Both the position numbers and the translations under genes were made by a program. Positions 2,963 to 48,680 of a stretch of DNA of 64,000 nt are shown one piece after another. Under the pieces are notes generated by a model. That model was not told the DNA's origin, made no database searches, and saw nothing but the letters and a program-made list of their open reading frames with translations. The stretch covers positions 21,347-85,346 of the forward strand of contig JACRDK010000004.1 of the NCBI GenBank assembly GCA_016218585.1, written 5' to 3'. The stretch's first letter is position 1; every line of letters begins with the position of its first letter. The DNA is from Candidatus Doudnabacteria bacterium. GTDB taxonomy: Bacteria; Patescibacteriota; Doudnabacteria; UBA920.

Positions 2963-3061
2963 AATTTTACTAAATACTAATTGTTTACTAATATGCTAAT
3001 CTTGATGAATCGTAAGTGAATTGTGTTATTTTGTAAGCAGAAATTCGTGCTTCGTAAAGTT

Positions 3062-3256: not shown

Positions 3257-3318
3257 ACAAAATTAATTTAAGATACTAATCTACTAATTTATGCTAATGA
3301 TACTAACTCGGCTTTAAT

Positions 3319-3858
3319 TTATTTTTTAAACGGGAAGCCTAATAAAGTTAACAATTCTCTGGCTGGTGCGTCTTTGCCTGCGTTAGTAACAACAGAAATT
3401 TCTAAGCCAAAAACATTTTCTAGCGATTCGGAGGAAATTTCCGGGAAAACCAAGTGTTCTTTCATGCCGAGGTGATAATTACCTCTGCCGTCAAAACCAT
3501 CTTTGTTAATCCCCTGGAAATCGCGCACTCTTGGCAAAGCAACGTTTACCAGTTTATCCAAGAAGCTGTACATGCGGTAACCTCTTAAGGTGCAAACAAT
3601 ACCGACAACCTGGTTTTCTCTGACCTTAAATCCGGCAATGGATTTTCTGGCCTTAGTCTTAACCGGAGCCTGTCCGGTAATTTTCTTAACGTCTTCGACA
3701 TATTGGTCAATCTTCTTTTTGTCGTCCTTAACTTTACCAACACCGACGTTAACAATGACTTTAAGAATTTTCGGCACTTGCATAACATTCTTGTAGCCGA
3801 ATTTTTCTTTTAAAACCGGGACTATCTTCTTATTATATTGTTCCTGTAATCTTTCCAT
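3319..3858 (-). CDS. rplE: 50S ribosomal protein L5
   Basis: MERLQEQYNKKIVPVL...VNVGVG typical L5 sequence. Confidence 0.9.
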   Translation of the reverse strand: MERLQEQYNKKIVPVLKEKFGYKNVMQVPKILKVIVNVGVGKVKDDKKKIDQYVEDVKKITGQAPVKTKARKSIAGFKVRENQVVGIVCTLRGYRMYSFLDKLVNVALPRVRDFQGINKDGFDGRGNYHLGMKEHLVFPEISSESLENVFGLEISVVTNAGKDAPARELLTLLGFPFKK

Positions 3859-3968
3859 AAAATCGCTGAATGATGCGGAACTTAACGCGGACTATCGCGG
3901 AAAGAACCACAACTTGTTAATTAAATTTCTGCGTACTTCCGCGTTATCTTCCGCGTGTTTCCGCGTTG
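3859..3968. repeat. Intergenic repeat family R1, copy 2
   Basis: See copy 1. Confidence 0.85.
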
Positions 3969-4292
3969 TTAAACTGCTTTACCGCTGGTTCTGGCCATTC
4001 TCTGCTTGCTGCCATTTTCCAAAAAAGTAAATCCAACGCGGGATGGGTTGCCGGAATTCGGGTCGAGCAGCATAACTTTAGAAACATGGAGGGCTGCAAA
4101 AAATGTAACTTTCTTTCCTGGCTCGCCGGCTTTTTTAGACTTTTCAAACCTGGTATGGACATTAACGTTTTCCACCATCACCTTGGAGATTTTGGGTAAA
4201 ACTTTAATAACCTTGCCGGTCTTTCCTTTGTCTTTTCCGGAAATGACTTTTACGGTATCGCCTGTCTTAATTTTTAGTCTGTTATTATTCAT
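3969..4292 (-). CDS. rplX: 50S ribosomal protein L24
   Basis: KIKTGDTVKVISGKDKGKTGKV is the KOW motif. Confidence 0.9.
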   Translation of the reverse strand: MNNNRLKIKTGDTVKVISGKDKGKTGKVIKVLPKISKVMVENVNVHTRFEKSKKAGEPGKKVTFFAALHVSKVMLLDPNSGNPSRVGFTFLENGSKQRMARTSGKAV

Positions 4293-4418
4293 ATCTTTAC
4301 TAAATACTAATTGATACTAATATACTAATCATTAAATGTTGGGTAATCTTTGAGAGTAAGAATTCGTATATTCGCCTGCCTGCCGGTAGGCAGGTACAAA
4401 TTCGTACTTCGTAAAGTT
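4293..4418. repeat. Intergenic repeat family R2 (ACTAAT and GAATTCGTA words). Copies also lie at 2963-3061, 3257-3318 (partial), 5378-5483, 5901-6020 and 7373-7482
   Basis: CTTTACTAAATACTAATTGATACTAATATACTAAT...AGTAAGAATTCGTATATTCG[P20]TACAAATTCGTACTTCGTAAAGT. Confidence 0.85.
4375..4394. repeat. 20-bp perfect palindrome P20, CCTGCC(T)ACCGGCAGGCAGG; other copies at 7439-7458, 13399-13418 and 24476-24495
   Basis: Exact copies. Two are inserted into R2 copies (R2 at 5378-5483 lacks it), one is inside the partial tRNA-Leu copy, and one is upstream of tuf. Confidence 0.85.
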
Positions 4419-4811
4419 TTAAATTACTTCTGGTGCCAAGCTGACAATTTTCTTAAATCCATCTTCAAAGGAGCCTTTAGCTTTTTCGCGAATTTCTCTC
4501 GGGATAGGACCGAATATGCGGCTTCCTTTTGGCTCACCTTTTTCTTTATCTACAATCACTCCGGCATTTTCATCAAAGCGTATATAAGATCCGTCTTTTC
4601 TGCGAATTTCTTTGCGCAAGCGAACAATTACCGCATAAACTTTATCACCCTTCTTTAAGGAAGAGTTCGGCGCAACCTGCTTGACGGAGCCGGCAACAAT
4701 GTCGCCGATTCTGGCAAAACGATTGCTGTTTTTTCCGTTGACGGAGAAAACATTGACGATCTTTGCGCCAGTATTGTCTGCTATATTAATCCAGGATCTT
4801 ACTTGTAACAT
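4419..4811 (-). CDS. rplN: 50S ribosomal protein L14
   Basis: MLQVRSWINIADNTGAK N-terminus. Confidence 0.9.
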   Translation of the reverse strand: MLQVRSWINIADNTGAKIVNVFSVNGKNSNRFARIGDIVAGSVKQVAPNSSLKKGDKVYAVIVRLRKEIRRKDGSYIRFDENAGVIVDKEKGEPKGSRIFGPIPREIREKAKGSFEDGFKKIVSLAPEVI

Positions 4812-4919
4812 ATAATTCTTTCGCTAGTGCACGGAGGTTGTAGACTCCGCGGATATCATTGACCAAAGCAATTCCTTTTGATCAGCGCTATCCGTGGAAT
4901 CTGCGTATCCGCGAGATAA

Positions 4920-5162
4920 CTAAATTTTATTAATTACTTTAAACTTCTTATCTTTGCTTATTGGTTTAACCGATTCAATCACCACACGGTCTCCGGTTTT
5001 ATACTCATTCGCTTCATCATGAGCTTTAAAACGCTTGGAAATAGTGTAAGATTTTTTATACTTAGCGTGGCGCTTTCTCATATCTACCTTTACCACCACG
5101 GTTTTGTCCATTTTATCGGACACTATAACACCGGTAAGTTGTTGCTTCTTTGATTGTGTCAT
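4920..5162 (-). CDS. rpsQ: 30S ribosomal protein S17
   Basis: LTGVIVSDKMDKTVVVKV; gene order. Confidence 0.85.
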   Translation of the reverse strand: MTQSKKQQLTGVIVSDKMDKTVVVKVDMRKRHAKYKKSYTISKRFKAHDEANEYKTGDRVVIESVKPISKDKKFKVINKI

Positions 5163-5176
5163 ATACTTGATACCTA

Positions 5177-5377
5177 CTACTTAATGCTTTCAACTTTCTT
5201 CTGATTTAGATAAGTCATTATACGGGCAATGTCTTTTTTAACCGCTCCCAATTCCCGGGGGTTCTTTAACTGATTGAGGCGGATTTTAACCGCTAAATCG
5301 TGAGCTTTAGCGCGCAATTCGAGCAACAAGCTTTTAATTTCACCTTCTGATTTAGTTGTTAATTCCTTAAATTTCAT
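5177..5377 (-). CDS. rpmC: 50S ribosomal protein L29
   Basis: 66 aa, MKFKELTTKSEGEI...LRAK; gene order. Confidence 0.8.
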   Translation of the reverse strand: MKFKELTTKSEGEIKSLLLELRAKAHDLAVKIRLNQLKNPRELGAVKKDIARIMTYLNQKKVESIK

Positions 5378-5483
5378 ATCTTTACTAAATACTTATTGAT
5401 ACTAATATACTAATTTTAATCTAAAAGGTAATTTATGGAAGTAAGAATTCGTATATTCGTACAAATTCGTACTTCATAAAGTT

Positions 5484-5900
5484 TTAACCTTGCTTTTCTT
5501 TAACTAAGAATCTGGATTTTACCGGAAGTTTGTAGCTGGCTAATCTCATAGCTTCCTGGGCCTGCTCTCTGGTCACCCCGTCCATTTCAAATAAAATCTT
5601 GCCTTTTTTTACAACTGAAACAAAGTGGTCAACAGCACCTTTACCGCCACCCATAGGGCTTTCGTTTCCGTGGAGGGTAACCGGTTTGTCGGCAAATACG
5701 CGGATCCAAATTTTACCGCCTCTTTGCACATAGCGAGTCATAGCGCGGCGGGCTGCTTCAATCTGACGAGCGGTAACCCAGCTGCTTTCCATGGCTTTTA
5801 AGGCAAAGGTGCCGAAAGCGATTTGTTCGCCGGCGGAAGCCTGTCCTTTAGTATGACCGCGGTGATGTTTGCGGTGTTTTAACTTTTTCGGGATAAACAT
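5484..5900 (-). CDS. rplP: 50S ribosomal protein L16
   Basis: MFIPKKLKHRKHHRG N-terminus. Confidence 0.9.
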   Translation of the reverse strand: MFIPKKLKHRKHHRGHTKGQASAGEQIAFGTFALKAMESSWVTARQIEAARRAMTRYVQRGGKIWIRVFADKPVTLHGNESPMGGGKGAVDHFVSVVKKGKILFEMDGVTREQAQEAMRLASYKLPVKSRFLVKEKQG

Positions 5901-6020
5901 ATCGGTTAAATTTACTATCTTTACTAACTACTAATCGGTACTAATATACTAATCTGTGATTATTAAATTGGTATATTCGTAAAAATTAGTAGTTAGTAAA
6001 GTAAGAGAATTAATTAACAA

Positions 6021-6704
6021 TTAGGCTTTTTTTGGAGCGTCGGCGATATCTTTTACAAAGGTTTTCTTACTTTCAAATACGTCTCCTTTATAAATCCAGA
6101 TTTTTACTCCGACAGTTCCGTAAGTGGTAAAAGCAGTGCTTCTGGCAAAATCTATATTGGCGCGCAAGGTATGAAGAGGAATTTTACCGGAGGAAAGATG
6201 TTCTGTGCGGGCAATATCAGCCCCGTTCAACCTACCGCCAATTGCTACTTTTGCTCCCTTAGCACCGGCGTTCATCATCTGTTCCAAGGACTGCTTCATC
6301 AGTTTTCTAAAAGCAACGCGCTTTTCCAACTGTTCGGCAATGCCGTTAGCAATAACTTGAGCTTGCAGGTTAACTTCTTTAATATCTTCGATGTTAACTT
6401 TTAATTCCTGCTTAATCCCCAACTTCGCTTTAATCTTTTTCTTAAGCTCTTCAATGCCGGCGCCGCCTTTGCCGATTATTAAACCCGGTTTAGTGGTTTT
6501 AATAATGACAGTAATAGTGCCGTCGTTTAAGCGCTCAATGTCGATTCTAACCAAGCCGGCCTTTTTCAAATGCAATTCCAAATATTCGCGAATTTTTACG
6601 TCTTCAGCCAATTGCTTGGAGTAGTTCGCTTTGGAAAACCATCTGGACTTCCAGGTATCGGTTATCTTCAATCTTAGTGATGTTGGGTTTATCTTATGTC
6701 CCAT
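6021..6704 (-). CDS. rpsC: 30S ribosomal protein S3
   Basis: MGHKINPTSLRLKITDTW N-terminus; KH domain. Confidence 0.9.
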   Translation of the reverse strand: MGHKINPTSLRLKITDTWKSRWFSKANYSKQLAEDVKIREYLELHLKKAGLVRIDIERLNDGTITVIIKTTKPGLIIGKGGAGIEELKKKIKAKLGIKQELKVNIEDIKEVNLQAQVIANGIAEQLEKRVAFRKLMKQSLEQMMNAGAKGAKVAIGGRLNGADIARTEHLSSGKIPLHTLRANIDFARSTAFTTYGTVGVKIWIYKGDVFESKKTFVKDIADAPKKA

Positions 6705-6793
6705 AATTTTAGTTAAAAGTTAATCAGGTTAATCAAGTTTATCAAGTCATTTACTTTGCAACTTTATGAACTTGATAACTTTATAAACTCGTT

Positions 6794-7372
6794 TTATACT
6801 CCGGTTTTTCTGTTAAATAATCTGCGTTTGTTGGCAACTTTGTTCATCTTTACTTCTTCATCAGTCTTGAACACCTGGCTCTTTTTCGGTGCGGCATTTA
6901 CCGGCTTCTTGCTTACTGCGTCTTGCTGGTCAACATTTTCAGGTTTAACTTCTTTGCCTTCAGTTTTCTTTAAGAAGCCAAGCTTGGTTTTGCTGGCTTT
7001 GGCCTTCTTCTTTTCTTCCAGCACAACATTAACGTGGCTCATCTTTCTTCTAATTACGAAAGCGCTGCCGCGGGCTCTGGGGAAATAACGCTTCATTTCT
7101 TTGCCCTGGTCGGCGGTAATGCTTTTTATAAACAAAAACTGAGGATCTAAAGAAAAATTATTCTTGGCATTGGCAATGGCGGACTGAAGTAATTTAATAA
7201 CAATCGGGGCAGCCTTTTTGTTGGCATGCTGGAGCTGGACAATCGCGTCCATCGCATTCATGTTCTTGATTAAATTAGTAACCAAGCGCATTTTTCTTGG
7301 GGCAATATGAATATGCCGGGCTGAAGCCTTAACCAATTTTCCGTTATTCTGTTTAGTTGCTTGCTCTGTCAT
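6794..7372 (-). CDS. rplV: 50S ribosomal protein L22 with a Lys-rich C-terminal extension of about 70 aa
   Basis: ASARHIHIAPRKMRLV core. The protein is 192 aa against about 110 aa normally. Confidence 0.85.
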   Translation of the reverse strand: MTEQATKQNNGKLVKASARHIHIAPRKMRLVTNLIKNMNAMDAIVQLQHANKKAAPIVIKLLQSAIANAKNNFSLDPQFLFIKSITADQGKEMKRYFPRARGSAFVIRRKMSHVNVVLEEKKKAKASKTKLGFLKKTEGKEVKPENVDQQDAVSKKPVNAAPKKSQVFKTDEEVKMNKVANKRRLFNRKTGV

Positions 7373-7482
7373 ATTACTATATTTACTAAATACTAATTTT
7401 AAATGGTTTAAATTTTGGAATAAGAATTCGTATATTCGCCTGCCTGCCGGTAGGCAGGTACAAATTCGTACTTCGTAAAGTG

Positions 7483-7815
7483 TTACTTCTTGCTGTCGTC
7501 TTTGGCGGCGTTAAGCTTGGCCTTTTCGGCTTCGGCTTTGGCTAATTCTTGTTCTTTAGCCATCTTACCACCATGACGGAGGAACTTACGAGTCGGAGAA
7601 AATTCTCCAAGCTTGTGGCCTACCATGTTTTCTGTAACGAATACCGGAACGTGAGTACGGCCGTTATGAACCAGGAAAGTAAAGCCTACAAACTCAGGGG
7701 CAATAGTGCAGGATCTGGACCAAGTTTTAATTTGGGTCTGACCGGCCTTGCCGTTTTGCACTTTCTTTACCACTCTCGGGTCTACGTATGGTCCTTTTTT
7801 TAGTGATCTAGACAT
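7483..7815 (-). CDS. rpsS: 30S ribosomal protein S19 with a C-terminal extension
   Basis: [12 protein letters not shown]...TFLVHNGR. Confidence 0.9.
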
Positions 7816-7900
7816 AAAATCAGTTCTTAAAGTTAATCAAGTTTTAAAGTTTATAAAGTTATGCCGTCCACTTGATGAACTTGATAACTTGATAAGCTTG

Positions 7901-8737
7901 TTACTTACTGCGTCTCTTAATAATCATTTTATTGCTGTATTTCTTCTTGCTTCTGGTCTTAACGCCAAGGGCATGTTTACCCCATGGAGTCTTTGGATAT
8001 TTCATACCAATCGGGTTATGACCTTCACCACCACCATGAGGGTGATCTACCGGGTTCATAACTTTACCGCGAACAGTTGGTCTCCAACCCATCAAGCGCA
8101 TTCTGCCGGCCTTGCCAATACGGACATTCATCCAATCGGAATTAGCTAACTGGCCAACTGTGGCTAAACAGGTTTCTCTGACTCTGCGGATTTCACCGCT
8201 TGGTAATTTAAGCAAAGCATAACCGGCTTCAACTGTCTGCAAGGTGGCATAAGCTCCGGCGCTTCTAGCCATTCTGCCGCCCTGTCCTGGAGTTAACTCA
8301 ATATCATGTATAAAAGTACCAACTGGAATATTTTTAATAGCTAAGCGGTTTCCCGGTAAAATTTCAGCTGTTTCGCCGAACATAACTTTGTCGCCAACTT
8401 TTAAACCCTGGGGGGTTAAAATAAAACGCTTGGCTCCATCATTATAGTGCAATAAGGAAATAAAAGCTGTGCGGGTCGGATCGTATTCAATGGTAACAAC
8501 TTTCGCCGGGATATTCTTTTTATCTTCACGGGAAAAATCCACCAAGCGAACTTTGCGGATAGCGCCGCCGCCCTGATGGCGAACGGTGATTTTTCCGCTG
8601 TTGTTGCGTCCGGCCGGTTTGGCTTTGGAAACTATCAAACCCTTCGGGGTCTTGGAAGTTTTATGCAAAACCGAATAATCGGTCACACTTTGAATGCGCC
8701 TTCCTGCGGATGTTGGTTTGTATAATTTAACGGCCAT
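7901..8737 (-). CDS. rplB: 50S ribosomal protein L2
   Basis: [14 protein letters not shown]...[10 protein letters not shown]. Confidence 0.9.
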
Positions 8738-9856: not shown

Positions 9857-9932
9857 AACTTGAGTGAATTAGTGATACACAGATCTAGTGAGTTAGTTAT
9901 CTAATTCTCTAACTCTCTTTTTCTCTAGCTTG

Positions 9933-13033: not shown

Positions 13034-13459
13034 TTGAATTTGCCTTTCTTTCGGAGAATCGGATTGTCGGAGAATCGGAAATAAAGTTTTGGCTTAATTT
13101 TCCGACTTTCTGATTTTTCTGATTTTCCGGGTTGCCCGAGACCCCCTCATCACTAATGCTTATCGATAAGGCATCAGTGCCGAGGGTATCTCTTTCTTTC
13201 CTTACGGAATCCAGGGCATTTGATTAATTAATTTTTACCCGCCTTAAGCTCGAAAGCTTTGGTTAGGGCTAGAACTTATTTTAAAGATATTTTGCCTTGC
13301 TGTCAAACAGCATAATGTGATACTGATATACAAATACATTCGGATGATACTGATAATACCGATTCGCTCTTTGTCAGTTTGTCAGTATCTTTATTAACCC
13401 TGCCTACCGGCAGGCAGGCGTATTATCAGTATTCAAATCTGTATATCTGCATCATAGCT

Positions 13460-16864: not shown

Positions 16865-17431
16865 TTAGCGGCGGCCAAAACGCGCAAAGTGGGCAAAAGC
16901 TTTGTTGGCTTCAGCCATACGGTGTACATCTTCGCGTTTCTTCATAGCGCCACCGGTCTTGTTGTATGCATCCATAATTTCACCGGCAAGTCTTTGCGCC
17001 ATAGGAGAACCTTTTTTGGCGCGGCAGGCGGCCAATAACCAGCGCATGGCTAAAGTGGTGCGGCGAGGTTCCATAACTTCCATTGGTACCTGATAGTTAG
17101 CACCGCCAATGCGGCGGGATTTTAATTCCATAATTGGGGAAACATTTTTTAAAGCAATATCAAAAACCTGGCGGCCTTCCAACACTGCCGGCTTTTCTTC
17201 TTTTGCCGGTTTTTCTCCGGTTGTTTTAGAAGCCGTTGTGGCTGTAGCCGGGGCGGTTAGAGTAGCGGCTTTTTCGCCGACTATGTCTAATGCATCGTAA
17301 AAAATCTTGCGGGCAACATTCTTCTTGCCGCGTTCCATTAAATAGTTAATGAATTTTGCATATTTAACCGAGCCGTAACGAGGGTCCGGTTCTGGAACGT
17401 GTTTATCGTAACTTCTGGATTTTCTTGGCAT
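16865..17431 (-). CDS. rpsG: 30S ribosomal protein S7 with an Ala/Thr/Lys-rich internal insertion of about 35 aa
   Basis: MPRKSRSYDKHVPEPDPRYGS. The protein is 188 aa against about 156 aa normally. Confidence 0.9.
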   Translation of the reverse strand: MPRKSRSYDKHVPEPDPRYGSVKYAKFINYLMERGKKNVARKIFYDALDIVGEKAATLTAPATATTASKTTGEKPAKEEKPAVLEGRQVFDIALKNVSPIMELKSRRIGGANYQVPMEVMEPRRTTLAMRWLLAACRAKKGSPMAQRLAGEIMDAYNKTGGAMKKREDVHRMAEANKAFAHFARFGRR

Positions 17432-17519
17432 ATGTTTATTCCACTAATTCACGAATTCTCACTAATTTCACGAATACCACTTAGTGTGATTCGTGATGAT
17501 TAGTGAATTCGTGGATAAA
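17432..17519. repeat. Repeat family R6 (CACGAAT words) immediately downstream and upstream of rpsL; second copy at 17934-18019, about 90% identical over about 75 bp
   Basis: CACTAATTTCACGAATA.CACTTAGT.T.ATTCG.GATGATTAGTGAATTCGTGGATAAATTATT occurs on both sides of rpsL. Confidence 0.85.
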
Positions 17520-17933
17520 TTATTTTCTCTTCGTTCCGTATTTAGAACGGCTTCTCTTTCTCCCGTCGACTCCGAGAGTATCTAGCTTTCCGCGAACAAT
17601 GTGATAACGGACACCGGGAAGATCTTTTACACGTCCGCCGCGGATCATTACTACGCTGTGTTCCTGTAAGTTGTGGCCAATACCCGGGATGTAAGCAATA
17701 ACTTCCATTCCGTTGGTAAGTTTGACCTTAGCCACTTTACGCAAAGCCGAGTTCGGCTTTTTAGGCGTTGTGGTATAAACCTTTAAACAGACACCGCGCA
17801 TAAACGGGGCGCCGGTTTTTATGAACAATGTCTTGTTCTTTATCAAGTTCTGCCTGCGCATTAACGCCGGAGACTTGCTTTTGGTTTTAAGAGGGCTTCT
17901 GCCTCTGCGAACCAATTGATTGATTGTTGGCAT
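17520..17933 (-). CDS. rpsL: 30S ribosomal protein S12
   Basis: [12 protein letters not shown]...[10 protein letters not shown]. Confidence 0.95.
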
Positions 17934-18310
17934 TTTTTCTCCACCAATTCTCGAATTAACACTAATTTCACGAATACTACTTAGTATAATTCGCGATGAT
18001 TAGTGAATTCGTGGATAAATTATTTTCTTGAATACTTTAAATAGCCATAAAAAAACTGACAAAAGATGTCAGATCTTTCGCGCTCGCCTGCTTGGTACTC
18101 ATCAGAAACCTTTTGATGTTTCTTCCCTCCCCTCCTAAGGGGAGGGTGAAGGGAGAGGTTGTCTTCCCAAAACTTGCGACTAATAAATAGTGATTCAATC
18201 GCCAATACGCTGATATGCACAGATTGCGCGGATTTCTGCATCCGTGTTATCTGTTGCTATTTGCGTATTTGCGACTGGGCTTCTTATTCAATTAAACACA
18301 TTATACAGAA

Positions 18311-24229: not shown

Positions 24230-24453
24230 AAGTGTATTATTTACTTAAAAAGTCTATCAAATTTATGGCCCTAACGCAAACCTCCTATAACAATTCACTT
24301 TTCTGATGTTTGCCGTAGTCTGCCGATTTATCGGCCATGCAACACGGTTATAGCCTGATAAATCAGGCAACTACGACTACGACACCTTTAGGATACACCC
24401 TTGAGCCTTTACGGGTAATTTCTTTTCTGCTAAAATAAATTAGTTTTCAATTC

Positions 24454-24506
24454 GGCCGAGTGGTGGAATGGCAGACCTGCCTACCGGCAGGCAGGCACAA
24501 ACGACT
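24454..24506 (+). pseudogene. Partial duplicate of the tRNA-Leu 5' half (acceptor, D-arm and 5' anticodon stem), interrupted by the 20-bp palindrome
   Basis: GGCCGAGTGGTGGAATGGCAGAC + CTGCCTACCGGCAGGCAGG + CACAAACGACT are identical to the 5' half of the intact tRNA at 24759. Confidence 0.75.
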
Positions 24507-24520
24507 AATCTGTATAATAT

Positions 24521-24808
24521 ATGTACACAGTTTATGCTATAAGTAGCTTAACTAAGAATTACATATACGTAGGTCTAACAGATAATATTCTCAGGAGATT
24601 TACTCAGCATAATCAAGGCTGGGTAAAAACAACAAGAAGCTATAAACCTTTTAAGCTCTTATATACGGAAAACGTTCCTAACCGTATATCTGCTAGAGCA
24701 AGAGAGAAATACTTAAAGAGCGGCATAGGAAAAGAATTTTTAAAAAGTTTATTGATAAGGCCGAGTGGTGGAATGGCAGACACAAACGACTCAAAATCGT
24801 TCGCTTAA
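24521..24808 (+). CDS. GIY-YIG domain (URI-type) endonuclease, about 80-95 aa; the 3' end runs into the tRNA-Leu gene
   Basis: YTVYAISS...YIYVGLT...RRFTQHNQG...KLLYTE...REKYLKS motifs; TATAAT sits 4 nt before the ATG. Confidence 0.7.
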   Translation: MYTVYAISSLTKNYIYVGLTDNILRRFTQHNQGWVKTTRSYKPFKLLYTENVPNRISARAREKYLKSGIGKEFLKSLLIRPSGGMADTNDSKSFA

Positions 24809-24842
24809 CGGCATGAGGGTTCGACTCCCTCCTCGGCCACCA
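24759..24842 (+). tRNA. tRNA-Leu (anticodon CAA), type II with a long variable arm
   Basis: Acceptor GGCCGAG/CTCGGCC, anticodon loop CTCAAAA, T-arm GAGGGTTCGACTCCCTC, CCA. Confidence 0.8.
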
Positions 24843-29969: not shown

Positions 29970-32861
29970 TTATATAACAAGGTTTATTAATCTGTTTGGC
30001 ACAAAAATTACCCGCTTAACGCTTTCTCCGACCAATGCCTGTTTAACTGCGTCCATTGCCATAACCTGAGCTTGCACTGCTTCCTGAGTCGCGCCGGCCG
30101 CAACGGTAAGTTTGGCTTTTACCCTGCCATTAATTTGCACAATTATTTCTACTGACGATTCAATAACCAATGCGGGATCAAAATTTGGCCAACTTAAATA
30201 CTGTAATGAGCCGACTTTCTTTTTTTCAACTTTGCTAACTTTCTCGTTTAATTCTTCCGCTATGTGCGGAGCAAATGGATACAACAAAATCAAGAATGTT
30301 TTAATGGATTCTAAGGTAATAAATTCATCCTTAATCTCATTATGAAATTCCATAAAAGCGGAAATGGAAGTGTTAAAACGGAAATTTTCCAAATCCTCGG
30401 TAATTTTCTTTATTAATTTATTCAACGCCCTCTGCACCTTATCAGTATCTTTTGCCCTTGATTCCTGATTCCTGATTCCTGATTCTTGTTGGTGGGGCGC
30501 TTCCGCAATTTCATTTACCCAGGTCCAAACTCTGTCTAAAAATCTTCTCACCCCAACAACGCCCTGGTCATTCCACGACACCATGGACTCGTGAGGCCCT
30601 AAAAACATTTCGTACATTCTTAGGGTATCGGCTCCATATTTTTTTACAACCTCATCAGGATTTACCACATTGCCCCGGCTCTTGGACATTTTCTCGCCAT
30701 CCGGGCCCAAAACAATTCCGTGCGGATGGCGTTTTTTATACGGTTCAGACACAGTAACCAAACCCTGGTCATACAAAAATAAATTCCAAAACCTGCTGTA
30801 AAGCAAATGCAAGGTTGTGTGCTCCATGCCGCCCAAATATACGTCTACCGGTTGCCAGTACTTTAACTTTTTCATATCGGCAAATTTGGTTTTATTTTTT
30901 GGGTCAGCATAGCGCAGCCAATACCAAGAACTGCCGGCCCATTGCGGCATAGTGTTAGTTTCCCGCCAAGCGGTCTTTTTACATTTTGGGCACTTGGTTT
31001 TTACCCAGCTTTTAATATCGGCCAATGGAGATTCTCCGTTGCCCGTTGGTTCATATTTTTTTACATTCGGCAGCTTTACCGGCAAATCCTTTTCCGGAAC
31101 CGGCACAATACCGCAATCTTCACAATGAATTAACGGAATTGGCTCGCCCCAATATCTTTGCCTGCTAAAAACCCAATCGCGCAGTTTATATTGAACGGTT
31201 AACTTGCCAAACTCCCCGCCCATTTTTGTTATTGCTTCTTCTGTTTTAAGTCCGTCAAATTTTTCAGAATTAATTACCACTCCGCTTTCCACCAGGGCTT
31301 TTGGCCCCGTCTTATACAAATCCCAAAAATGTTTAAACACCGCGCCCTTAATAAAAGCGGCCACGGATTTTTCACTTACCCAAACCGGTTTATGTTTGGC
31401 CAGTTCTTCTCCCACAACTTCTGTTTTATCTTCGTTTACCAAATCAAACACAAAACCTTTAAAATAAGCGTGGCGATTTTCTTTTTTTAACAAATGGTAA
31501 AACTTTTCATGCGCTTGCCCAAGTTCCGCAACAAGTTTTATATTTTTATAGCCGGTTTCTTCCGCCACTTCTCTCTGGCAGGCAACAATGTAATCTTCGC
31601 CTTTTTCCACCCCGCCGGTTACAAAAGTTTTCCAGGCTTCAGAAACCTGCCACTGCAAGCACAAAAATTCATTGGTTTTTGGATTGCGAACCAAACAAAC
31701 CACCGCATTTCTAGGAACGAACGGTAATTCAGGCTTGGGAGGTTCGTCTTTAGAAACAAACTCCGGAGCCACAACCTGGACTATTGGCAATTTAAATTTT
31801 GTTGCAAATTCAAAATCGCGAACATCGTGCGCCGGCACGGCCATAATTGCTCCCGTTCCATAATGGCCAAGAACATAGTCTGCCACCCACACCGGAATTT
31901 CCTGTTTGGTTGCTGGGTTAATTGCCTTAATTCCTTTTAACTCAACTCCGGTTTTTTCTTTTCCTTCGGCCGTGCGGTCCATTTCCGCCTTCTCTTTTGC
32001 CTTAGCAATATACTTTGCGACCTCGTCGTAATTCTTGATTCTTGATTCTTGATTCTTAATTAAAGGGTGCTCCGGCGCCACCACCATATAACTCGCGCCA
32101 AAAATAGTATCCGGTCGGGTGGTGAAAACCTCAATTGGAAATTGGAAATTGGAAATTGGAAATTTAATAATCGCTCCCGTGCTCTTTCCAATCCAATTCT
32201 CCTGTTGCAGCTTTACCGCTTCAGGCCATTCGGGCAAATTTTTTAATCCTTCCAATAATTTTTCCGCGTAAGCGGTTATGCGCAAATACCACTGCCGCAG
32301 CTCTTTCTTTTCCACGATAGTGCCGCAGCGTTCGCATTTGCCGTCTATTACTTCCTCGTTAGCCAATCCGGTTTTGTCTTTTGGACACCAATTAATCAAG
32401 CCGGTAGCTTCATAAGCCAACCCTTTTTTGTAAAATTGCAAAAACAGCCACTGCGTCCATTTATAATATTCCGGGTCGGTAGTGTTTATTTCCCTGCTCC
32501 AATCAAAACTCAAACCCCAACTTTGAATTTGTTTCTTGGCGTTGGCAACATTTTTTTTGGTAGTAATGGAAGGATGCACGCCCATTTTTATGGCATAGTT
32601 TTCCGCAGGCAGACCAAAAGCATCCCAACCAATTGGAAACATAGTCTCAAAACCTTTTAACCTGTTAAATCTGCTGTAAACATCGCCCGCCACATAAGGG
32701 CGCAAATGCCCCATATGCAAACCTGCGCCGGACGGATAAGGAAATTCAACCAACACAAACTTTTTTGGTTTTTTGGCCGACTCTTTGGCGATAAAAGTTT
32801 TATTTTTTGCCCAAAATGCTTGCCACTTGCCTTCTATTTTTTTATGGTCGTACTTTTGCAT
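29970..32861 (-). CDS. leuS: Leucyl-tRNA synthetase
   Basis: HMGH, KMSKS and the CP1 domain; 963 aa. Confidence 0.95.
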   Translation of the reverse strand: MQKYDHKKIEGKWQAFWAKNKTFIAKESAKKPKKFVLVEFPYPSGAGLHMGHLRPYVAGDVYSRFNRLKGFETMFPIGWDAFGLPAENYAIKMGVHPSITTKKNVANAKKQIQSWGLSFDWSREINTTDPEYYKWTQWLFLQFYKKGLAYEATGLINWCPKDKTGLANEEVIDGKCERCGTIVEKKELRQWYLRITAYAEKLLEGLKNLPEWPEAVKLQQENWIGKSTGAIIKFPISNFQFPIEVFTTRPDTIFGASYMVVAPEHPLIKNQESRIKNYDEVAKYIAKAKEKAEMDRTAEGKEKTGVELKGIKAINPATKQEIPVWVADYVLGHYGTGAIMAVPAHDVRDFEFATKFKLPIVQVVAPEFVSKDEPPKPELPFVPRNAVVCLVRNPKTNEFLCLQWQVSEAWKTFVTGGVEKGEDYIVACQREVAEETGYKNIKLVAELGQAHEKFYHLLKKENRHAYFKGFVFDLVNEDKTEVVGEELAKHKPVWVSEKSVAAFIKGAVFKHFWDLYKTGPKALVESGVVINSEKFDGLKTEEAITKMGGEFGKLTVQYKLRDWVFSRQRYWGEPIPLIHCEDCGIVPVPEKDLPVKLPNVKKYEPTGNGESPLADIKSWVKTKCPKCKKTAWRETNTMPQWAGSSWYWLRYADPKNKTKFADMKKLKYWQPVDVYLGGMEHTTLHLLYSRFWNLFLYDQGLVTVSEPYKKRHPHGIVLGPDGEKMSKSRGNVVNPDEVVKKYGADTLRMYEMFLGPHESMVSWNDQGVVGVRRFLDRVWTWVNEIAEAPHQQESGIRNQESRAKDTDKVQRALNKLIKKITEDLENFRFNTSISAFMEFHNEIKDEFITLESIKTFLILLYPFAPHIAEELNEKVSKVEKKKVGSLQYLSWPNFDPALVIESSVEIIVQINGRVKAKLTVAAGATQEAVQAQVMAMDAVKQALVGESVKRVIFVPNRLINLVI

Positions 32862-34892: not shown

Positions 34893-36422
34893 CTAAATTC
34901 TTGGAAATAATCTTGGAATGTTCCCCGATGTTAAATCTTTTAACGCTAAAAGTATTTGCCCTGCTGTATTAGGAAGAAACGGCTTTAAGCTCTGTGCAAT
35001 ACCTTCTAACTCACTAAGCAAAAACTCGATGTCCTTTTTTGCCGCGGCTTCATCAACCTTAATTTTTTTAAATGGCTCTTCTTTTTGAATATACTGGTCG
35101 CAAGCTTGGATTTTTTTCCAAACTTCGTCCGTTGCTTTGGCTAATTCATAATGATTCAGCAACTCGTTTCCCTGATTCATAATTCTTAACTCATACTTCG
35201 TGATTCCCGCATTAACCGCCATTTTCAAAATTCTGCTGGTTAAATTTCCAATTCCATTAGCAAGTCCGGCGTTATAGGTTTCCACAAAATGTTCCCAGGT
35301 GTAATCCCCGTCTTCAAAGGTTGGAATTTCCCGCAACAAATAATAGCGCAAGGCATCAGTTGCCTGCTCTTTCGTTAAGCCCAAACTTTCCAGCTTGGCC
35401 AAAATTTCATATGGGTCGGCAACATTGCCGAGAGACTTGGACATTTTTTGCCCGCCGCTGGTAATAAACCCATGAATTATTATTTGTTTGGAGTTTGTCA
35501 ATCCAGCTGACATTAACATCGCCTGCCACATTGCCGATTGTTGGCGAAGGTTGTCTTTTCCGGCAATTTGTACCCCGGGCCAGAATTCAGCAAATAGGAA
35601 GTCGGAAGTCGGAAGTCGGTTCGAGTCCGATCCTCCGGTTATCCGGTTATCCGATTTTTCCGATTCAGGCCAACCCAAAGTGGAAATATAGTTAATGAGC
35701 GCATCAAACCACACATACATTACATGAGCTTCGTCTCCGGGCACCGGAACCCCCCAGGACATTTTTTCTTTTAAACGCGATACGCTAAAATCTTCCAGGC
35801 CTTTTTTCACAAATTCTTTTATTTCATTAAACCGAAAATCGGGAATAACAAAGTCCGGTTGTTTTTCGTATAAATCTAACAACTGTTGCTGGTACTTAGA
35901 CCAACGAAAAAAATAATTTTCTTCTTCTCTTATTTCCAACTCTAAATTGGGATGAAGCGGGCATTTGCCGTCTACCAATTCACTTTCGGTTTTTTCCAGC
36001 TCACAACCAACGCAATATTTAATTTTATAATTCTTTTTATAAATATCGCCGTTCTTCTCGCATCTCTTCCAAAATTCCTGGGCCGCGGCAATATGATTTG
36101 CATCTGTAGTTCTAACAAAATGAATGTCCGGGCTAATACCCAAAGCAGGCATAAGTTGTTTAAATTTTTCGGCATATTCGTCTACATAAGCCTGAACATC
36201 CTGTTTTTTACTTTCTGCTTTCTGAAAGATTTTTTGTCCGTGTTCATCTGTTCCCGTATTAAAAAACACCTCTTGTCCTAAAATTTCTTTATGATATCTC
36301 GCGATTACGTCGGCTTGAACCATTTCTAAAGCAAACCCTAAATGAGGGTCAGAATTAACATAAGGCAACGTTGTTGTAATGTAAAACTTATTTTTGTTCA
36401 TAATCGTATAAAACTCTCGCAA
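34893..36422 (-). CDS. metG: Methionyl-tRNA synthetase with an in-frame insertion of about 20 aa made of tandem short repeats
   Basis: KMSKS and the LGWPE...FWP region. The insertion SEKSDNRITGGSDSNRLPTSD is encoded by GGAAGTCGG x3 and CCGGTTATC x2 (35595-35665). Confidence 0.9.
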   Translation of the reverse strand: MREFYTIMNKNKFYITTTLPYVNSDPHLGFALEMVQADVIARYHKEILGQEVFFNTGTDEHGQKIFQKAESKKQDVQAYVDEYAEKFKQLMPALGISPDIHFVRTTDANHIAAAQEFWKRCEKNGDIYKKNYKIKYCVGCELEKTESELVDGKCPLHPNLELEIREEENYFFRWSKYQQQLLDLYEKQPDFVIPDFRFNEIKEFVKKGLEDFSVSRLKEKMSWGVPVPGDEAHVMYVWFDALINYISTLGWPESEKSDNRITGGSDSNRLPTSDFLFAEFWPGVQIAGKDNLRQQSAMWQAMLMSAGLTNSKQIIIHGFITSGGQKMSKSLGNVADPYEILAKLESLGLTKEQATDALRYYLLREIPTFEDGDYTWEHFVETYNAGLANGIGNLTSRILKMAVNAGITKYELRIMNQGNELLNHYELAKATDEVWKKIQACDQYIQKEEPFKKIKVDEAAAKKDIEFLLSELEGIAQSLKPFLPNTAGQILLALKDLTSGNIPRLFPRI

Positions 36423-42349: not shown

Positions 42350-42795
42350 TATTTATTTTCCCTCCCCTGATTAAGGGGAGGGATTAAGGGAGAGGTTGGC
42401 TTAAATATTTTGCTTTATTATTTCCAACACCCCATTAATATTTTTATCTATATCATTATTCCAAAACCTTAAAACTTTATAACCTTGCTTAGAAGCGAAA
42501 TCTTGTTTTAGAATATCATACTGGTTAATATGTAACTCACTATGCTGGCTGCCATCAAGTTCAATAAGAAGCATTTTTCCTCTACAACTGAAGTCAAAAA
42601 TATATTGTCCGATTTGGACTTGCCGTTTAAATTTTAAATTGCAAAACCGTCCGGCACGCAAGTATTGCCATAATTTTGTTTCCCAAGGGTTGTGAGTTTT
42701 TCGAAGTACGCGAGAATTGGTTAAATAAGGTTCGGGGATAATTCTTTTCATACAACCTCTCCCCTGCCCCTCTCCTTAGAAGGAGAGGGAATTAC
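42350..42795. mobile_element. DUF559 endonuclease gene bracketed by inverted hairpin repeats (CCCTCCCCT..AAGGGGAGGG..AGGGAGAGGTTG)
   Basis: Left repeat at 42351-42400. The right end at 42752-42795 starts with CAACCTCTCCC, the reverse complement of GGGAGAGGTTG. A solo copy of the repeat lies at 18112-18170. Confidence 0.5.
42401..42751 (-). CDS. DUF559 / Vsr-like PD-(D/E)xK endonuclease domain protein
   Basis: IFDFSC...LIELDGSQH...YKVLRFWNNDI. Confidence 0.7.
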   Translation of the reverse strand: MKRIIPEPYLTNSRVLRKTHNPWETKLWQYLRAGRFCNLKFKRQVQIGQYIFDFSCRGKMLLIELDGSQHSELHINQYDILKQDFASKQGYKVLRFWNNDIDKNINGVLEIIKQNI

Positions 42796-44312: not shown

Positions 44313-47294
44313 TTACTGTGGCGATCCGCCTTCGTTGAGTTTGCTGGCTCTATTAAATATTCCCAAAGTTGAACTTCCGGTAAAACTATTTACGCCGTCG
44401 CCCGTTGCTGTCGACAAGCAGAAAATATTAGCACCAGAATTCGAATTCGCGTAATACGAAGCCCAAATATTATAATATCCATTATCTAAGGCTGAAATTC
44501 CTGTAGCATAAGGAATTGCCGCGCCGGTGGTTGTGCCAACGGTGCCATTTTGAATGTCAAAATATACCCAGCTGCCGCAAGTGGAAATAAAGGACAATGC
44601 GGCCCAAGTTCTGCCGTTTGGTTTTACTTCCGCTGAAACTGTATAGAGCGCTTGGCTTTTTACGTAACTGCCCAAAGCATAATTTACCCGGTGAATTAAG
44701 TTCTGCGTATTTTCCATAAATGAGTTTGCGGTTCTTGTTCCTACGCCTTGCACCGCCCAGGTGCCTTGGGTCATATCTACATTTGCGGTTGAAGGGAATA
44801 ATTGCGCAATTGTTGCGGGAGTAGTATTTAACTCCTGGCTTAACACTGTCCTGACTGTTGGCAAAGAATAATATGTTGTGGTTGCAATAACATATTTAAA
44901 ATTCTGTCCGAGATAGCTGTTATAATCGGCGCTAAAATTGGCAACGCTAACTCCGCCTAAGCTATAAATTGTTTGCGTGCCGTCGTTAACTGTTGGGGAA
45001 TTCCAGGTATTGCCGCGAGAGCTCAAAGAAGAGCCCGTGCCGGACATTGTAATTCCGCCAATTAACGTTGAACTGGCAATTGTTAACGCTGCGTTAGTTC
45101 CGCTTAAATACGCGGCGGTTCCGGTTCCGGTTAGAGTAACGTTGCTCATGCTAATAATCTCCCCTGTTGTATTAGTTCCGGCCAGAGCTCTGCCTCCATT
45201 TGTCATTTGGCAGCTAGAATTAGAAATGGTTGTGGTGCCAACTCCTGCCTGGAAACAAGCAGTGCTCGAAGAGTCCGCGGGAGAATTGGTGATTGTGGTA
45301 TTTTTAATTATAAAGTTGGAAACTTCATTAGCCGCCGGACCTCTCATATTATCTGAGGTTAAATTATCAACTGTAACGGTGCCGAAAGTGTCGGGCGTTC
45401 CACCGGTATGGGAAATAAAAGAAGAGGCGCCTGCCACATAAGTGGTTGAATCATTATAAGCGGTACTATTCCTAACTTCGCCGCTGCCGCCGTTGGCAAA
45501 GAACGAACCCGGGTGCAATACGTACATGCCATAGCCGCCATTATGAGCCACGGAGTCAGTAACCAAAGAGCCGTCTGAAAAATAATATTGATGGCTATAA
45601 CTTTCTTCCGATAAACAATTGGAAATATATGCGTTAGTAAAGGCGCGGATTGAACCGTCGTTTGCCTGAACTCTTCTAGCATGAAGGCCAATATACCTGG
45701 TGCCATCTTTGGAACTGTCTACCGCTCTGGCTCTTGCCGTATATTCATACTGACTGCCGTTTGAAGAAGGATTCCCGGTTGTTGCGTGCACATAAATTGT
45801 CGGCGAAGTTGTACTAGCGTTGCCAATATAAAAACTTCCGGCTATAGAATCACAACTTGAAGTTGACGTCTGCATAGAAAGACGGGATCCATTTTCAAAA
45901 ACCCAAATTTGGTTAGGGTTGGCGTTATCAGATGGCAAAACCGCTTTATAGCAATTGGTTGTCCCGGCAGTAAGGCTCCAGGCAGACGAAGAAATAATGT
46001 CAGAGGCATCAACCAATGGCTTAGCTCCGGATCCATAAGATTGAACGGTCATGTTATCTCTGGGAACTGTAAGAGTTTCTCTCCAGGCAGAGTCGGTAAC
46101 CAAATTCCATGTATTAAGAGGCGCGGAGGCATCTACAGTTTGCAGGCGGGAAATTGTTTTTACAGCCTGCGCCGGAGATAACCCGGAGTTGCTGTCATTG
46201 CCGTTAACGGAATCTACATAATAAGTTGGCGTAGGGTTTGTATAATCTGCCGAGGTTACCGTATTACTGCTTGCGTCAGTGGATTTAATATGAAAATGGT
46301 AGGCGGTTGTGGTTGCTAATCCGGTTAAAACCAGCGAATGGGAAGTTACCATCGATGCAGACGAAGTTGAAAATCCATACGAAGTTGTTGTTCCATATTC
46401 AATTAACGAATTAGATAATTCGTCGGTAGTCCAGGTTATTTGTAAACTGGTTGCTGTTGGCGTACTGGTAGCAACCGAAGAGATTACCGGCGCGGTTGTA
46501 TCTGGCGTAGAGCCGGAAGACCCTCCGGAAGATGAGCCGCCTCCCCCGCCACCACTGGCATAACCGCCGCTGTAAGTAGGCGGGGGGTTATTATTTCCGG
46601 TTGTATTATTGGAAGATGAACCATTATTGGCTACGGTGGTTCTGGTTTCCACCACTCCGCCAACAGGCAAAGCTAAATCTGCTTCATTAGCAGGGACCAC
46701 TGTTTTAAAATCATTATCTATATGCCATGCATTATAGACGTCCAAAGAAGGATAAGGATAGAGTGTTCCGTTATTTATCCAATAAATCGTGCCGTTGCTT
46801 AAAATATCAACTCCGTTTAAATGAGCGGATGATGAATCGAAAATATTAGAACCTTTTGGCAGCAGCTGTTCTTCCGGATTAGTTACCAAAAGTACGGACG
46901 TAAATCTAAAGCCGAGCCCAAGAAAAACTTCTGCGGAAGTAAAAGCGCGGCGCGTGCCATCGGACACCAAATAAACGGTTTTATCTTCGGCAGATTTAAT
47001 TAAAGCTCCGTTATTTGGAAGCAAAAGACTTCCCTGCGGCAAGCTTAAATCTTCGGCCGTTGCCGCGGCTGCATCCTTAAATTCAAAACCATAGGAAAAT
47101 AAAATTCCGGGACTGGTTACTCCTTGCAGCGTATTGTTTTGGATTAAATAAAATGTTCCGTTGTTATTTATAAGCCTTATTGGATTTGATTTTGGAAAAG
47201 TTAGCGTCTCCCCCATAACTCGCATAGGAAAAGGAGTAAAAATAAAAATCGCTGTAATTATCAAATAAAAAAAAGACCGCTTTAAAATATCCAT
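44313..47294 (-). CDS. Large secreted surface protein: signal peptide, Gly/Ser-rich linker, Fn3-like domain, beta-helix-like repeats
   Basis: Signal peptide; GGGGGGSSSGGSSGS linker; ITWTTDE...EYGTTTSYG Fn3-like segment; NxT/S-rich repeats. Confidence 0.6.
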   Translation of the reverse strand: MDILKRSFFYLIITAIFIFTPFPMRVMGETLTFPKSNPIRLINNNGTFYLIQNNTLQGVTSPGILFSYGFEFKDAAAATAEDLSLPQGSLLLPNNGALIKSAEDKTVYLVSDGTRRAFTSAEVFLGLGFRFTSVLLVTNPEEQLLPKGSNIFDSSSAHLNGVDILSNGTIYWINNGTLYPYPSLDVYNAWHIDNDFKTVVPANEADLALPVGGVVETRTTVANNGSSSNNTTGNNNPPPTYSGGYASGGGGGGSSSGGSSGSTPDTTAPVISSVATSTPTATSLQITWTTDELSNSLIEYGTTTSYGFSTSSASMVTSHSLVLTGLATTTAYHFHIKSTDASSNTVTSADYTNPTPTYYVDSVNGNDSNSGLSPAQAVKTISRLQTVDASAPLNTWNLVTDSAWRETLTVPRDNMTVQSYGSGAKPLVDASDIISSSAWSLTAGTTNCYKAVLPSDNANPNQIWVFENGSRLSMQTSTSSCDSIAGSFYIGNASTTSPTIYVHATTGNPSSNGSQYEYTARARAVDSSKDGTRYIGLHARRVQANDGSIRAFTNAYISNCLSEESYSHQYYFSDGSLVTDSVAHNGGYGMYVLHPGSFFANGGSGEVRNSTAYNDSTTYVAGASSFISHTGGTPDTFGTVTVDNLTSDNMRGPAANEVSNFIIKNTTITNSPADSSSTACFQAGVGTTTISNSSCQMTNGGRALAGTNTTGEIISMSNVTLTGTGTAAYLSGTNAALTIASSTLIGGITMSGTGSSLSSRGNTWNSPTVNDGTQTIYSLGGVSVANFSADYNSYLGQNFKYVIATTTYYSLPTVRTVLSQELNTTPATIAQLFPSTANVDMTQGTWAVQGVGTRTANSFMENTQNLIHRVNYALGSYVKSQALYTVSAEVKPNGRTWAALSFISTCGSWVYFDIQNGTVGTTTGAAIPYATGISALDNGYYNIWASYYANSNSGANIFCLSTATGDGVNSFTGSSTLGIFNRASKLNEGGSPQ

Positions 47295-47432: not shown

Positions 47433-48680
47433 TTAAATTTTTGGTTCGGTGTAATCTTTGTAATCTCTAACCATATCTTCAAAATAATCATAACTAATTG
47501 CGGTGCGAATTTTTTTCATCAGATTTAAATAGAAACGCAAATTATGCATTGTTGCCAGGCGAATGGCCAGAGGCTCGCCTGTGGCGAACAAATGTCGCAA
47601 ATAACTGCGCGTATGGTTTAAACACAAATAACAATCACAGGTGTTATCTATTGTTGTAAAATCTTCTTTATATTTTTCCAAACGAATATCTATAGTAGAA
47701 TAACCTTCCTTTTTTGTGTCATCCCGGCCTTCGAGCCGGGATCCAGGATTCACTGCACTGGATTCCGGATACCCCTCGGATGCACTTGGGCTTCCGGAAT
47801 GACAAACAGCCGAAACATACAAACGCCCATGTCGTGCTTCGCGGGTAGGAATAACACAATCAAAAGTATCGCAGCCTCTGCTGGCGGCCTGAACTATATC
47901 AAATGGAGTTCCAACGCCCAAAAGATGCTTTGGTGAATTTTCCGGCAAATGGGGAATTGCGGCCTCAACTGCTTTCATCATTTCCTCGTGCGGCTCCCCT
48001 ACTGCCACGCCGCCAATGGCAAAAGCTTCAAAACCAAGAGCCACCATATCTTTGGCGGATTGTTCTCGCAAATCCGGGAATGAAGCGCCCTGAACTATGC
48101 CCCAAAGTTTTTGTCCGGGGTTTATAGGGTCGCCGTCTATAATTATTTTTTGATATTCTCTAATTGCCCGCTCGGCCCAGCGCTTGGTAAGCGCAATGGA
48201 TTCCTTGCTTCGTTCATACTCAAAAGGATAGCCGGGAAAATCGTCTAAAATTAGCGCAATGTCGCTTCCTAAATTCGCCTGAATGTCTACCGACTTTTCC
48301 GGAGACAAAATTTCTGTTTTGCCGTCCAAGTCAAACTGAAACACCACGCCGCCTTCCCCTACTTTTCTCATTTTGGCCAAAGAGAAAACTTGAAATCCTC
48401 CCGAGTCCGTAAAAATCGGCCCTTTCCAATTCATAAATTCGTGCAAGCCGCCGGCTTTATAAATAAGGCCGTCTCCCGGCCTTTGCCAGAGATGGTAGGT
48501 ATTGGCTAAAATAATATCCGCACCCCAGAATTTTAATTCTTCGGAAGTTATTGATTTTACCGCACCCTTTGTGCCAATTGGCAAAAACGCCGGAGTTTGA
48601 ATATCTCCGTGAGCGGTATGAATAACACCCGTTCTAGCGCGAGAGCCGGGATCGGATTTTAAAATTTCAAAATATGGCAT
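47433..48680 (-). CDS. tgt: Queuine tRNA-ribosyltransferase with an in-frame GC-rich palindromic insertion of about 40 aa
   Basis: Zinc site CxCxxC...H. The insertion VSAVCHSGSPSASEGYPESSAVNPGSRLEGRDDTKKEGYS is encoded at 47706-47830 and contains the hairpin TCCCGGCcttcgaGCCGGGA. Confidence 0.85.
   Translation of the reverse strand: MPYFEILKSDPGSRARTGVIHTAHGDIQTPAFLPIGTKGAVKSITSEELKFWGADIILANTYHLWQRPGDGLIYKAGGLHEFMNWKGPIFTDSGGFQVFSLAKMRKVGEGGVVFQFDLDGKTEILSPEKSVDIQANLGSDIALILDDFPGYPFEYERSKESIALTKRWAERAIREYQKIIIDGDPINPGQKLWGIVQGASFPDLREQSAKDMVALGFEAFAIGGVAVGEPHEEMMKAVEAAIPHLPENSPKHLLGVGTPFDIVQAASRGCDTFDCVIPTREARHGRLYVSAVCHSGSPSASEGYPESSAVNPGSRLEGRDDTKKEGYSTIDIRLEKYKEDFTTIDNTCDCYLCLNHTRSYLRHLFATGEPLAIRLATMHNLRFYLNLMKKIRTAISYDYFEDMVRDYKDYTEPKI

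Follow-up and report, generated by a model that had tools for sequence, protein, structure and literature searches.

A 64-kb stretch of Candidatus Doudnabacteria DNA (referred to as the window) contains, at 47433-48680 on the minus strand, the tgt gene, which encodes the 415-residue queuine/preQ1 tRNA-guanine transglycosylase (TGT). Our computational analysis indicated that an 88-nt element within this gene (47717-47804) is very probably a non-autonomous selfish repeat, composed of two units of the CGTC superfamily of repetitive extragenic palindromes (REPs) with their tags facing outward, which was inserted into tgt and is tolerated in a loop of the protein. An in-frame selfish palindromic insertion had been proposed in an initial annotation of the window, and this proposal was borne out by the empty site in the nearest relatives and by the dispersal of the same element type in relatives and metagenomes. 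Taken by itself the locus is ordinary, a further case of a REP from a known superfamily that is inserted in frame. [quoted passage not shown]

The host gene and its additional residues

The tgt product matched Pfam family PF01702 (E-value of 1.6e-136), was matched by TGTs of the PDB at an E-value of 1e-100, and is 100% identical to a protein of a Candidatus Doudnabacteria metagenome-assembled genome (MAG) at NCBI. Its catalytic residues are conserved, as are the zinc-site residues C348, C350, C353 and H356, which are invariant. The alignment to solved TGT structures breaks at residue 290 of the window protein and restarts at residue 329, where the E. coli TGT passes from residue 281 to residue 284, leaving approximately 38 residues without a counterpart in those structures. 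In the closest relatives (P0002 and P0003, 88% identity; P numbers designate TGT homologues and L numbers the loci of relatives) the corresponding loop comprises 21 residues versus 48 in the window TGT, an excess of 27. The initial annotation had reported about 40 extra residues ahead of the zinc subdomain, and this is borne out: the CxCxxC zinc motif follows approximately 20 residues after the insert, which itself lies a few residues past the conserved RHGR segment. Its figure of about 60% GC applies to the 88-nt core (59.1%) and not to the span 47706-47830 for which it was given (53.6%); the GC content is 43.5% in the rest of tgt and 40.7% in the window.

The insert is free of stop codons in the tgt frame and keeps the reading frame intact, and it is for this reason translated, as approximately 27-29 additional residues; in the tgt frame the element reads CHSGSPSASEGYPESSAVNPGSRLEGRDD (residues ~293-321). 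An AlphaFold2 model of moderate quality (mean predicted local distance difference test score, pLDDT, of 66.9), which was built from a shallow alignment of close homologues and was used only for the placement of loops and strands, gave pLDDT values below 50 for residues 296-319, located between the strands 286-294 and 323-331 at the tip of a beta-hairpin. The model predicts that the inserted residues form a disordered surface loop, and the element would have been inserted at the tip of the beta-hairpin that precedes the TGT zinc subdomain. The TGT carrying the insert is expected to remain functional.

Anatomy of the 88-nt element

The element, which is absent from the closest relatives, is a head-head heterodimer of two TGTC-tagged hairpin units whose tags point outward. 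Unit 1 (47717-47745, plus strand) consists of a TGTC tag (47717-20), a perfect 8-bp stem (ATCCCGGC at 47721-28 and GCCGGGAT at 47735-42), a CTTCGA loop (47729-34) and a CCA tail (47743-45), and its stem recurs in a unit of L011. Unit 2 (47759-47804) lies on the minus strand, the coding strand of tgt, and consists of a TGTC tag (47804-01), a perfect 8-bp stem (ATTCCGGA at 47800-793 and TCCGGAAT at 47769-62), a 23-nt loop (47792-70) and a CCA tail (47761-59). This long loop is an extension of the stem, with an inner stem GCCC/GGGG and the core AGTGCATCCGA; in an otherwise matching unit of this type in L014 (13135-13182) the inner stem is replaced by TTTTT/AAAAA, a compensated change. Both 8-bp stems begin with the base pairs A-T and T-A. 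Between the units lies a 13-nt spacer (47746-47758), which together with the adjacent AT+CCAG and CTGG+AT can form a central ATCCAG/CTGGAT hairpin. Read on the coding strand, the order is TGTC-ATTCCGGA-[23 nt]-TCCGGAAT-CCA, followed by the 13-nt spacer and by TGG-ATCCCGGC-TCGAAG-GCCGGGAT-GACA, and the whole is bounded by the terminal inverted repeats TGTCATYCC...GGRATGACA.

Two dyads had been pointed out in the initial annotation. The first, TCCCGGCcttcgaGCCGGGA (TCCCGGC-cttcga-GCCGGGA), was found exactly at 47722-47741, with no chance match in 100 shuffles. The second had been given as ATCCAGG...CCGGAT and was slightly misdescribed, the actual pairs being ATCCAG/CTGGAT (47741-46 and 47758-63) and ATTCCGGA/TCCGGAAT (47762-69 and 47793-800). 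As DNA, the element folds into a closing stem and three hairpins. The folding energy alone is modestly unusual (DNA z = -2.0, with 5 of 200 shuffles equally good; RNA z = -1.3), and the strong signal is the tag/stem/tail architecture rather than the folding energy. A tRNA-like element, suggested by the cloverleaf-like arrangement of the closing stem and the three hairpins, was considered and rejected, as ARAGORN found nothing there, and a search for known RNA families in Rfam yielded only sub-threshold noise.

Membership in the CGTC superfamily

The CGTC-tagged REPs described by Di Nocera, De Gregorio and Rocco in 2013 (PMC3733652) are tagged at the terminus with CGTC, for which TGTC or CCTC often stands; the stem has 8-9 bp and nearly always starts with AT, the loop has 4-5 nt (other loop lengths are found in some families) and the tail is mostly CCA. 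They occur mostly as head-head dimers, in which the tags lie outside, and heterodimers are common. The superfamily includes Neisseria dRS3 as well as Rickettsia RPE-4 and RPE-6 (CGTC-4 and CGTC-1, respectively); intragenic in-frame copies encode 20-30 residues, and for RPE inserts in Rickettsia expression as part of the protein is reported (PMC3733652). With these repeats the window element shares the TGTC tag on both units, perfect 8-bp stems starting with AT, CCA tails, and a head-head layout with the tags at both outer ends and a 13-nt spacer in between. These shared features argue strongly that the element is a head-head dimer of TGTC-tagged REP units belonging to the CGTC superfamily.

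Copies in relatives and metagenomes

Repeats of this kind were searched in 1.10 Mb of Doudnabacteria DNA, comprising the window and 62 tgt loci, by a strict scan that accepted only tagged units with a C[CT] tail and with an 8-bp stem that begins with AT and is free of mismatches. The scan detected 16 units, compared with 0-1 in each of 20 local-composition shuffles, and the repeats form a real family that is not due to chance. Stems were perfect in 16 of 17 collected units, and compensatory changes on both sides were observed at stem positions 3, 6 and 8. Four of the 16 strict units are located in the tgt loop and three more approximately 100 nt downstream of tgt; the loci had been picked around tgt, so that enrichment near this gene is partly due to ascertainment. 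Two other detectors were tried and set aside: a looser scan for hairpins, in which one mismatch in the stem was tolerated, was noisy (49 matches versus 18-30 in shuffles), and the SRM motif, introduced below, was unselective in this DNA (6 matches versus 2-6 in shuffles).

Copies are found both between and within genes. Intergenic copies are present in L020, L013, L011, L032 and L065, and CGTC-type units in L020 (11389-11462) and L013 (11376-11413) lie approximately 100 nt past the tgt stop codon, the left unit in L020 fitting the consensus of the Neisseria NTS repeats at 27 of 28 positions. In this lineage the CGTC-type family both flanks and interrupts tgt. In-frame copies occur in further genes of relatives, encoding an M24 peptidase, a MetRS-like protein and a TatD-like protein; in the M24 peptidase gene, in-frame CGTC-type dimers occupy two sites, one in L014 (13136-13225) and L018 (15025-15150) and the other in L028 (13245-13315) and L001 (14463-14536). 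A metagenome scan for the type of the left unit (unit 2, which is on the left when the coding strand is read) returned at least 120 loci, and among the matches listed the GC content ranged from 31 to 68%, a head-head partner accompanied 58 of 124 occurrences, and the loop measured 5 to 28 nt in copies with the same outer stem and was in many cases an extended stem. The search for further copies of the segment that had been recommended in the initial annotation gave none within the 64-kb window, whether it was made with the exact pattern (up to 3 mismatches being tolerated), with blastn-short or with a regular expression for the termini.

The tgt loop as a recurrent insertion site

Across 111 TGT homologues (72-88% identity) the length of the loop varies from 16 to 110 residues, exceeding 21 residues in 94 and reaching at least 33 in 39 of them, and its flanks are near-constant, with 258 and 51 residues in all homologues carrying the anchors. 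The inserts belong to at least six families of GC-rich palindromes, among them the CGTC type, LDPPSPRLRRTAPD, PPPxGGRLGGGD, SPQEERGLQSPSPFEERVGERLQ and GHPSLAGGEAP, and short tandem-heptamer inserts also fill the loop in many relatives. Every long insert folds as a strong DNA hairpin, and several of the families recur elsewhere in the loci. A GC-rich element, ACAACCTCTCCC...GGGAGGG..., which is present in the window in two inverted copies (18123-18162 and 42752-42791), belongs to the same family as the tgt-loop insert of L033 and copies in L010, L001 and L065.

Inserts with ends of the TGTCATYCC...GGRATGACA type were identified at the tgt site of L002 (= P0007), L003 (= P0018) and L014 (= P0044), the right end being degenerate in L014 (...GATGATA). 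The interiors of the inserts in the window, L002, L003 and L014 are unrelated to one another, and the L003 insert is a near-perfect palindrome of 82 nt. Nine CGTC-type carriers are scattered among short-loop relatives over a neighbour-joining TGT tree, in which the window TGT is sister to four proteins without the element. The pattern named in the initial annotation as contrary to a selfish insertion, namely the same insertion shared across relatives with divergent, non-palindromic DNA, is not the one observed, as the inserts of relatives are palindromic and the nearest relatives are empty.

Multiple occupation of the loop was also observed. At L008 5416-5700 and in P0009, P0011 and P0030, two to three loop inserts are separated by a duplicated host segment, EGYSTIDIRL (~30 nt), which suggests either that alleles with different occupants recombined unequally or that the LDPPSPRLRRTAPD element generated a long duplication of its target. 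A minor second insertion site of TGT is close to the N-terminus (core positions 9-12) and is occupied in L002 6186-7457 (P0007), L033, L013 and L057 by repeat-type peptides such as HPGPLPQGEGGK.

Other genes in the same loci have insertion loops of their own: two sites in the M24 peptidase (8 and 10 carriers), two in the AP endonuclease (6 and 8) and one in metG (7), at which the inserts are repeat-type peptides of several families. Core position 106 of glyS was examined as a further hot spot and discarded, because it holds a conserved insertion domain and not a repeat. In the window, the initial annotation had likened the tgt insert to one in metG; that insert (~35600-35670) is real and the principle holds, but its family is a different one, consisting of in-frame tandem heptamers, CGGATAA and CGACTTC, which form an inverted pair. 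Heptamers of another sequence, CTGATTC, are read in frame as IRNQESR at 30441-30492 of a leuS-like open reading frame (ORF; 29970-32861) for a large aminoacyl-tRNA synthetase. Such inserts keep the frame because three heptamers amount to 21 nt.

Because other housekeeping genes behave alike at their own loops, our analysis favours the view that hairpins are inserted at a high rate throughout the genome and that these insertions would be filtered by selection according to the tolerance of each protein, with the tgt loop becoming a hot spot mainly through tolerance; a mechanism specific to tgt is less likely. Alternatively, the tgt loop might be actively targeted, with repeats directed to it by DNA sequence or structure, or with an earlier insert attracting the next. 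Room is left for some targeting because the inserts of the window, L002 and L003 are placed at an identical point and in an identical frame in spite of their unrelated interiors, and because nested or tandem inserts with the duplicated EGYSTIDIRL segment exist in some homologues. The concentration of strict units in and just downstream of tgt points in the same direction, partly ascertained as it is, and known REPs are targets of some insertion sequences and phage recombinases (PMC11893778). On the other hand, the presence of at least six unrelated families in the loop argues against one sequence-specific mechanism, the L014 element differs from that of the window both in the nucleotide at which it begins and in its frame, and other genes show a like pattern at loops of their own. 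Active targeting is considered rather unlikely.

GIY-YIG nucleases and the possible movement of the repeats

The spread of the family would depend on an enzyme acting on hairpins of single-stranded DNA, for which a small GIY-YIG nuclease of the Ssn type is the best candidate. In Neisseria, NTS repeats (CGTCATTCCCGCGMAVGCGGGAATCYRG) and related motifs flank the genes of SsnA, a 94-residue GIY-YIG nuclease that cuts single-stranded DNA beside a hairpin, cleavage being dependent on three bases upstream of the palindrome, and the NTS-ssnA-NTS arrangement was likened to an insertion sequence by the authors of that study, which was published in 2025 (PMC11893778). The SRM search motif used there is HGTCWYN(0-2)YYVSBRHN(0-5)WNVSBRGN(0-2)RNCYNB.

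Five small GIY-YIG ORFs were found in the DNA analysed, and two of them are bracketed by, or closely abut, units of the type studied here: one gene in L177 lies between inverted TGTCATCCT...GAAGGATCTC units, and behind the gene in L065, at a distance of 15 nt, there is a CGTC-type palindrome. These repeat-flanked genes are reminiscent of the NTS-ssnA-NTS arrangement (PMC11893778), and the SRM-GIY-YIG-SRM unit of L177 may play the role of a parent insertion sequence. A second GIY-YIG gene in L177 has only a lone tag approximately 350 nt upstream, and the gene in L060 has no unit within 400 nt. By analogy with Neisseria, mobilisation of the family by an Ssn-type GIY-YIG enzyme is possible, although the balance is tilted against it.

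A wider and unlikely generalisation is that in Doudnabacteria, and perhaps in more of the Candidate Phyla Radiation (CPR), hairpin repeats of several unrelated families are a main source of protein-length variation and are driven by small GIY-YIG single-strand nucleases, with the repeat-flanked nuclease genes as their autonomous partners. If this were true, a new kind of mobile element based on GIY-YIG would exist, of which CGTC repeats would be the miniature derivatives, and every housekeeping protein would have one or two loops in which repeats land repeatedly, the tip of the tgt beta-hairpin being the most extreme case. In the inserts, nature has provided an experiment that shows where in a protein random peptides can be accommodated, as well as a data set on the movement of CGTC repeats, which has been an open question since 2013 and has been made testable by the Ssn nuclease work of 2025.

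The GIY-YIG ORF of the window (24521-24808, 95 residues) is located between a partial 5' copy of tRNA-Leu(CAA) (24453-24510) and an intact tRNA-Leu gene (24759-24842). The partial copy reaches as far as the anticodon loop and has a 20-nt palindrome within it, and the last residues of the ORF are encoded by the 5' half of the tRNA-Leu gene. The arrangement has the appearance of an insertion of a small GIY-YIG element into the tRNA-Leu gene, with duplication of the 5' part of the gene. The palindrome, CCTGCCTRCCGGYAGGCAGG, is perfect and occurs in four copies in the window (4375-4394, 7439-7458, 13399-13418 and 24476-24495), which are nested in other, AT-rich repeats or in the tRNA-Leu fragment; in relatives, CCTGCCTRCCGGYAGGCAGG is found translated as LPAGR inside a loop of the AP endonuclease.

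Evidence against the proposed origin and alternative explanations

Several observations weigh against the insert being a mobile repeat of the CGTC superfamily. The loops of its two units measure 6 and 23 nt versus the canonical 4-5 nt, which is the sole feature of the anatomy that departs from the published description. With one copy in the 64-kb window, multi-copy status in the source genome is unproven. No direct target-site duplication is visible at the element junctions, and the difference between the 88 nt of the element and the net gain of 81 nt prevents the insertion from being delimited exactly. The identical insertion point and frame in the window, L002 and L003 allow for common descent or recombination among these three, and the TGT tree is a neighbour-joining tree without support values. 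As for the movement of the repeats, no transposase associated with CGTC repeats was found in the original survey, tyrosine transposases included (PMC3733652); neither unit of the window element matches the degenerate SRM search motif; no CGTC unit lies beside the GIY-YIG gene of the window (PF01541, E-value of 4e-16); and the best solved relatives of the Doudnabacteria GIY-YIG proteins, which are only possible members of the Ssn family (cd10448), are UPF0213 proteins (E-value of 6e-5).

It is also conceivable, though very improbable, that the extra residues are a lineage-specific functional loop, for example for the binding of tRNA or of a partner, and that the palindromic nature of the DNA is incidental. 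Most Doudnabacteria are already nine residues longer at this place than the TGTs of E. coli or Z. mobilis, and the conserved RHGR segment is only a few residues away, both of which would suit such a function. However, the nearest relatives lack the insert, the carriers have DNA tags and stems in common rather than a peptide, similar DNA is also intergenic, and the inserted residues are predicted to be disordered.

A chimera induced by repeats during metagenome assembly would be a still less probable origin. The sequence comes from a MAG and only one contig carries this exact protein, but the reading frame is intact, and the same element type is present at the same site in independent assemblies from other samples (L002 from Logan, L003 and L014 from NCBI). 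Finally, while the in-frame interruption of a conserved gene could recall a mini-intein, an intron or a bypassed element that is removed before the mature protein, this can be dismissed as scarcely credible, as 88 nt are far too few for an intein or a group I/II intron, no intein junction residues, Rfam match or tRNA-like gene were found, and the comparable RPE inserts of Rickettsia are, as reported, present in the expressed protein (PMC3733652).

Other features of the window

Between tgt and glyS the window contains an ORF of 993 residues rich in Gly, Ser and Thr (44313-47294), and synteny is broken beside tgt, a sigma-70 gene being located there in L001 and glyS being directly adjacent in L002. 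The region of small ORFs at 1300-8000, considered as a possible source of nuclease genes, proved to be a ribosomal protein operon (S5, L6, S8, L5, L24, L14, L16, S3, L22 and S19) with unusually long intergenic spacers. These spacers are occupied by AT-rich repeat families with short tandem and inverted motifs (D1-D6, D9, D10 and D13), and the regions concerned are approximately 700-8000, 9860-9925 and 17430-18030.

Comparison with known repeat systems

Within the CGTC superfamily, the long loop of the window element is distinguished as a stem extension with a TGCAT-containing core, and its host is new, Patescibacteria/CPR being outside the five phyla reported, with one copy in the window. The RPEs of Rickettsia offer the closest parallel in placement, as they too are palindromic repeats found in frame in conserved housekeeping genes, absent from orthologues, translated, and located at permissive surface positions. 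RPE-1, however, is longer than the window element and unrelated to it in sequence, and in Rickettsia a site is usually occupied by one family, whereas at least six families occupy the tgt loop in different relatives.

The REPIN/RAYT system resembles the window element in that an inverted doublet of tagged hairpins is the mobile unit, probably with recognition of the hairpins in single-stranded DNA. The tag is GTAG in that system versus (C/T)GTC here, and no Y1 transposase (REP-associated tyrosine transposase, RAYT) was seen in this DNA, in which no systematic Y1 search was made. Bacterial MITEs are likewise short, non-coding, dispersed and non-autonomous, with terminal inverted repeats (here TGTCAT...ATGACA); the window element differs from them in showing no detectable duplication of the target site, and an insertion sequence with matching ends that could be its parent was not identified, unless the L177 unit has this role. 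With regard to the NTS/SRM repeats of Neisseria, L014, L032 and L065 contain units that fit the SRM motif, as does the right unit of the L002 insert in tgt.

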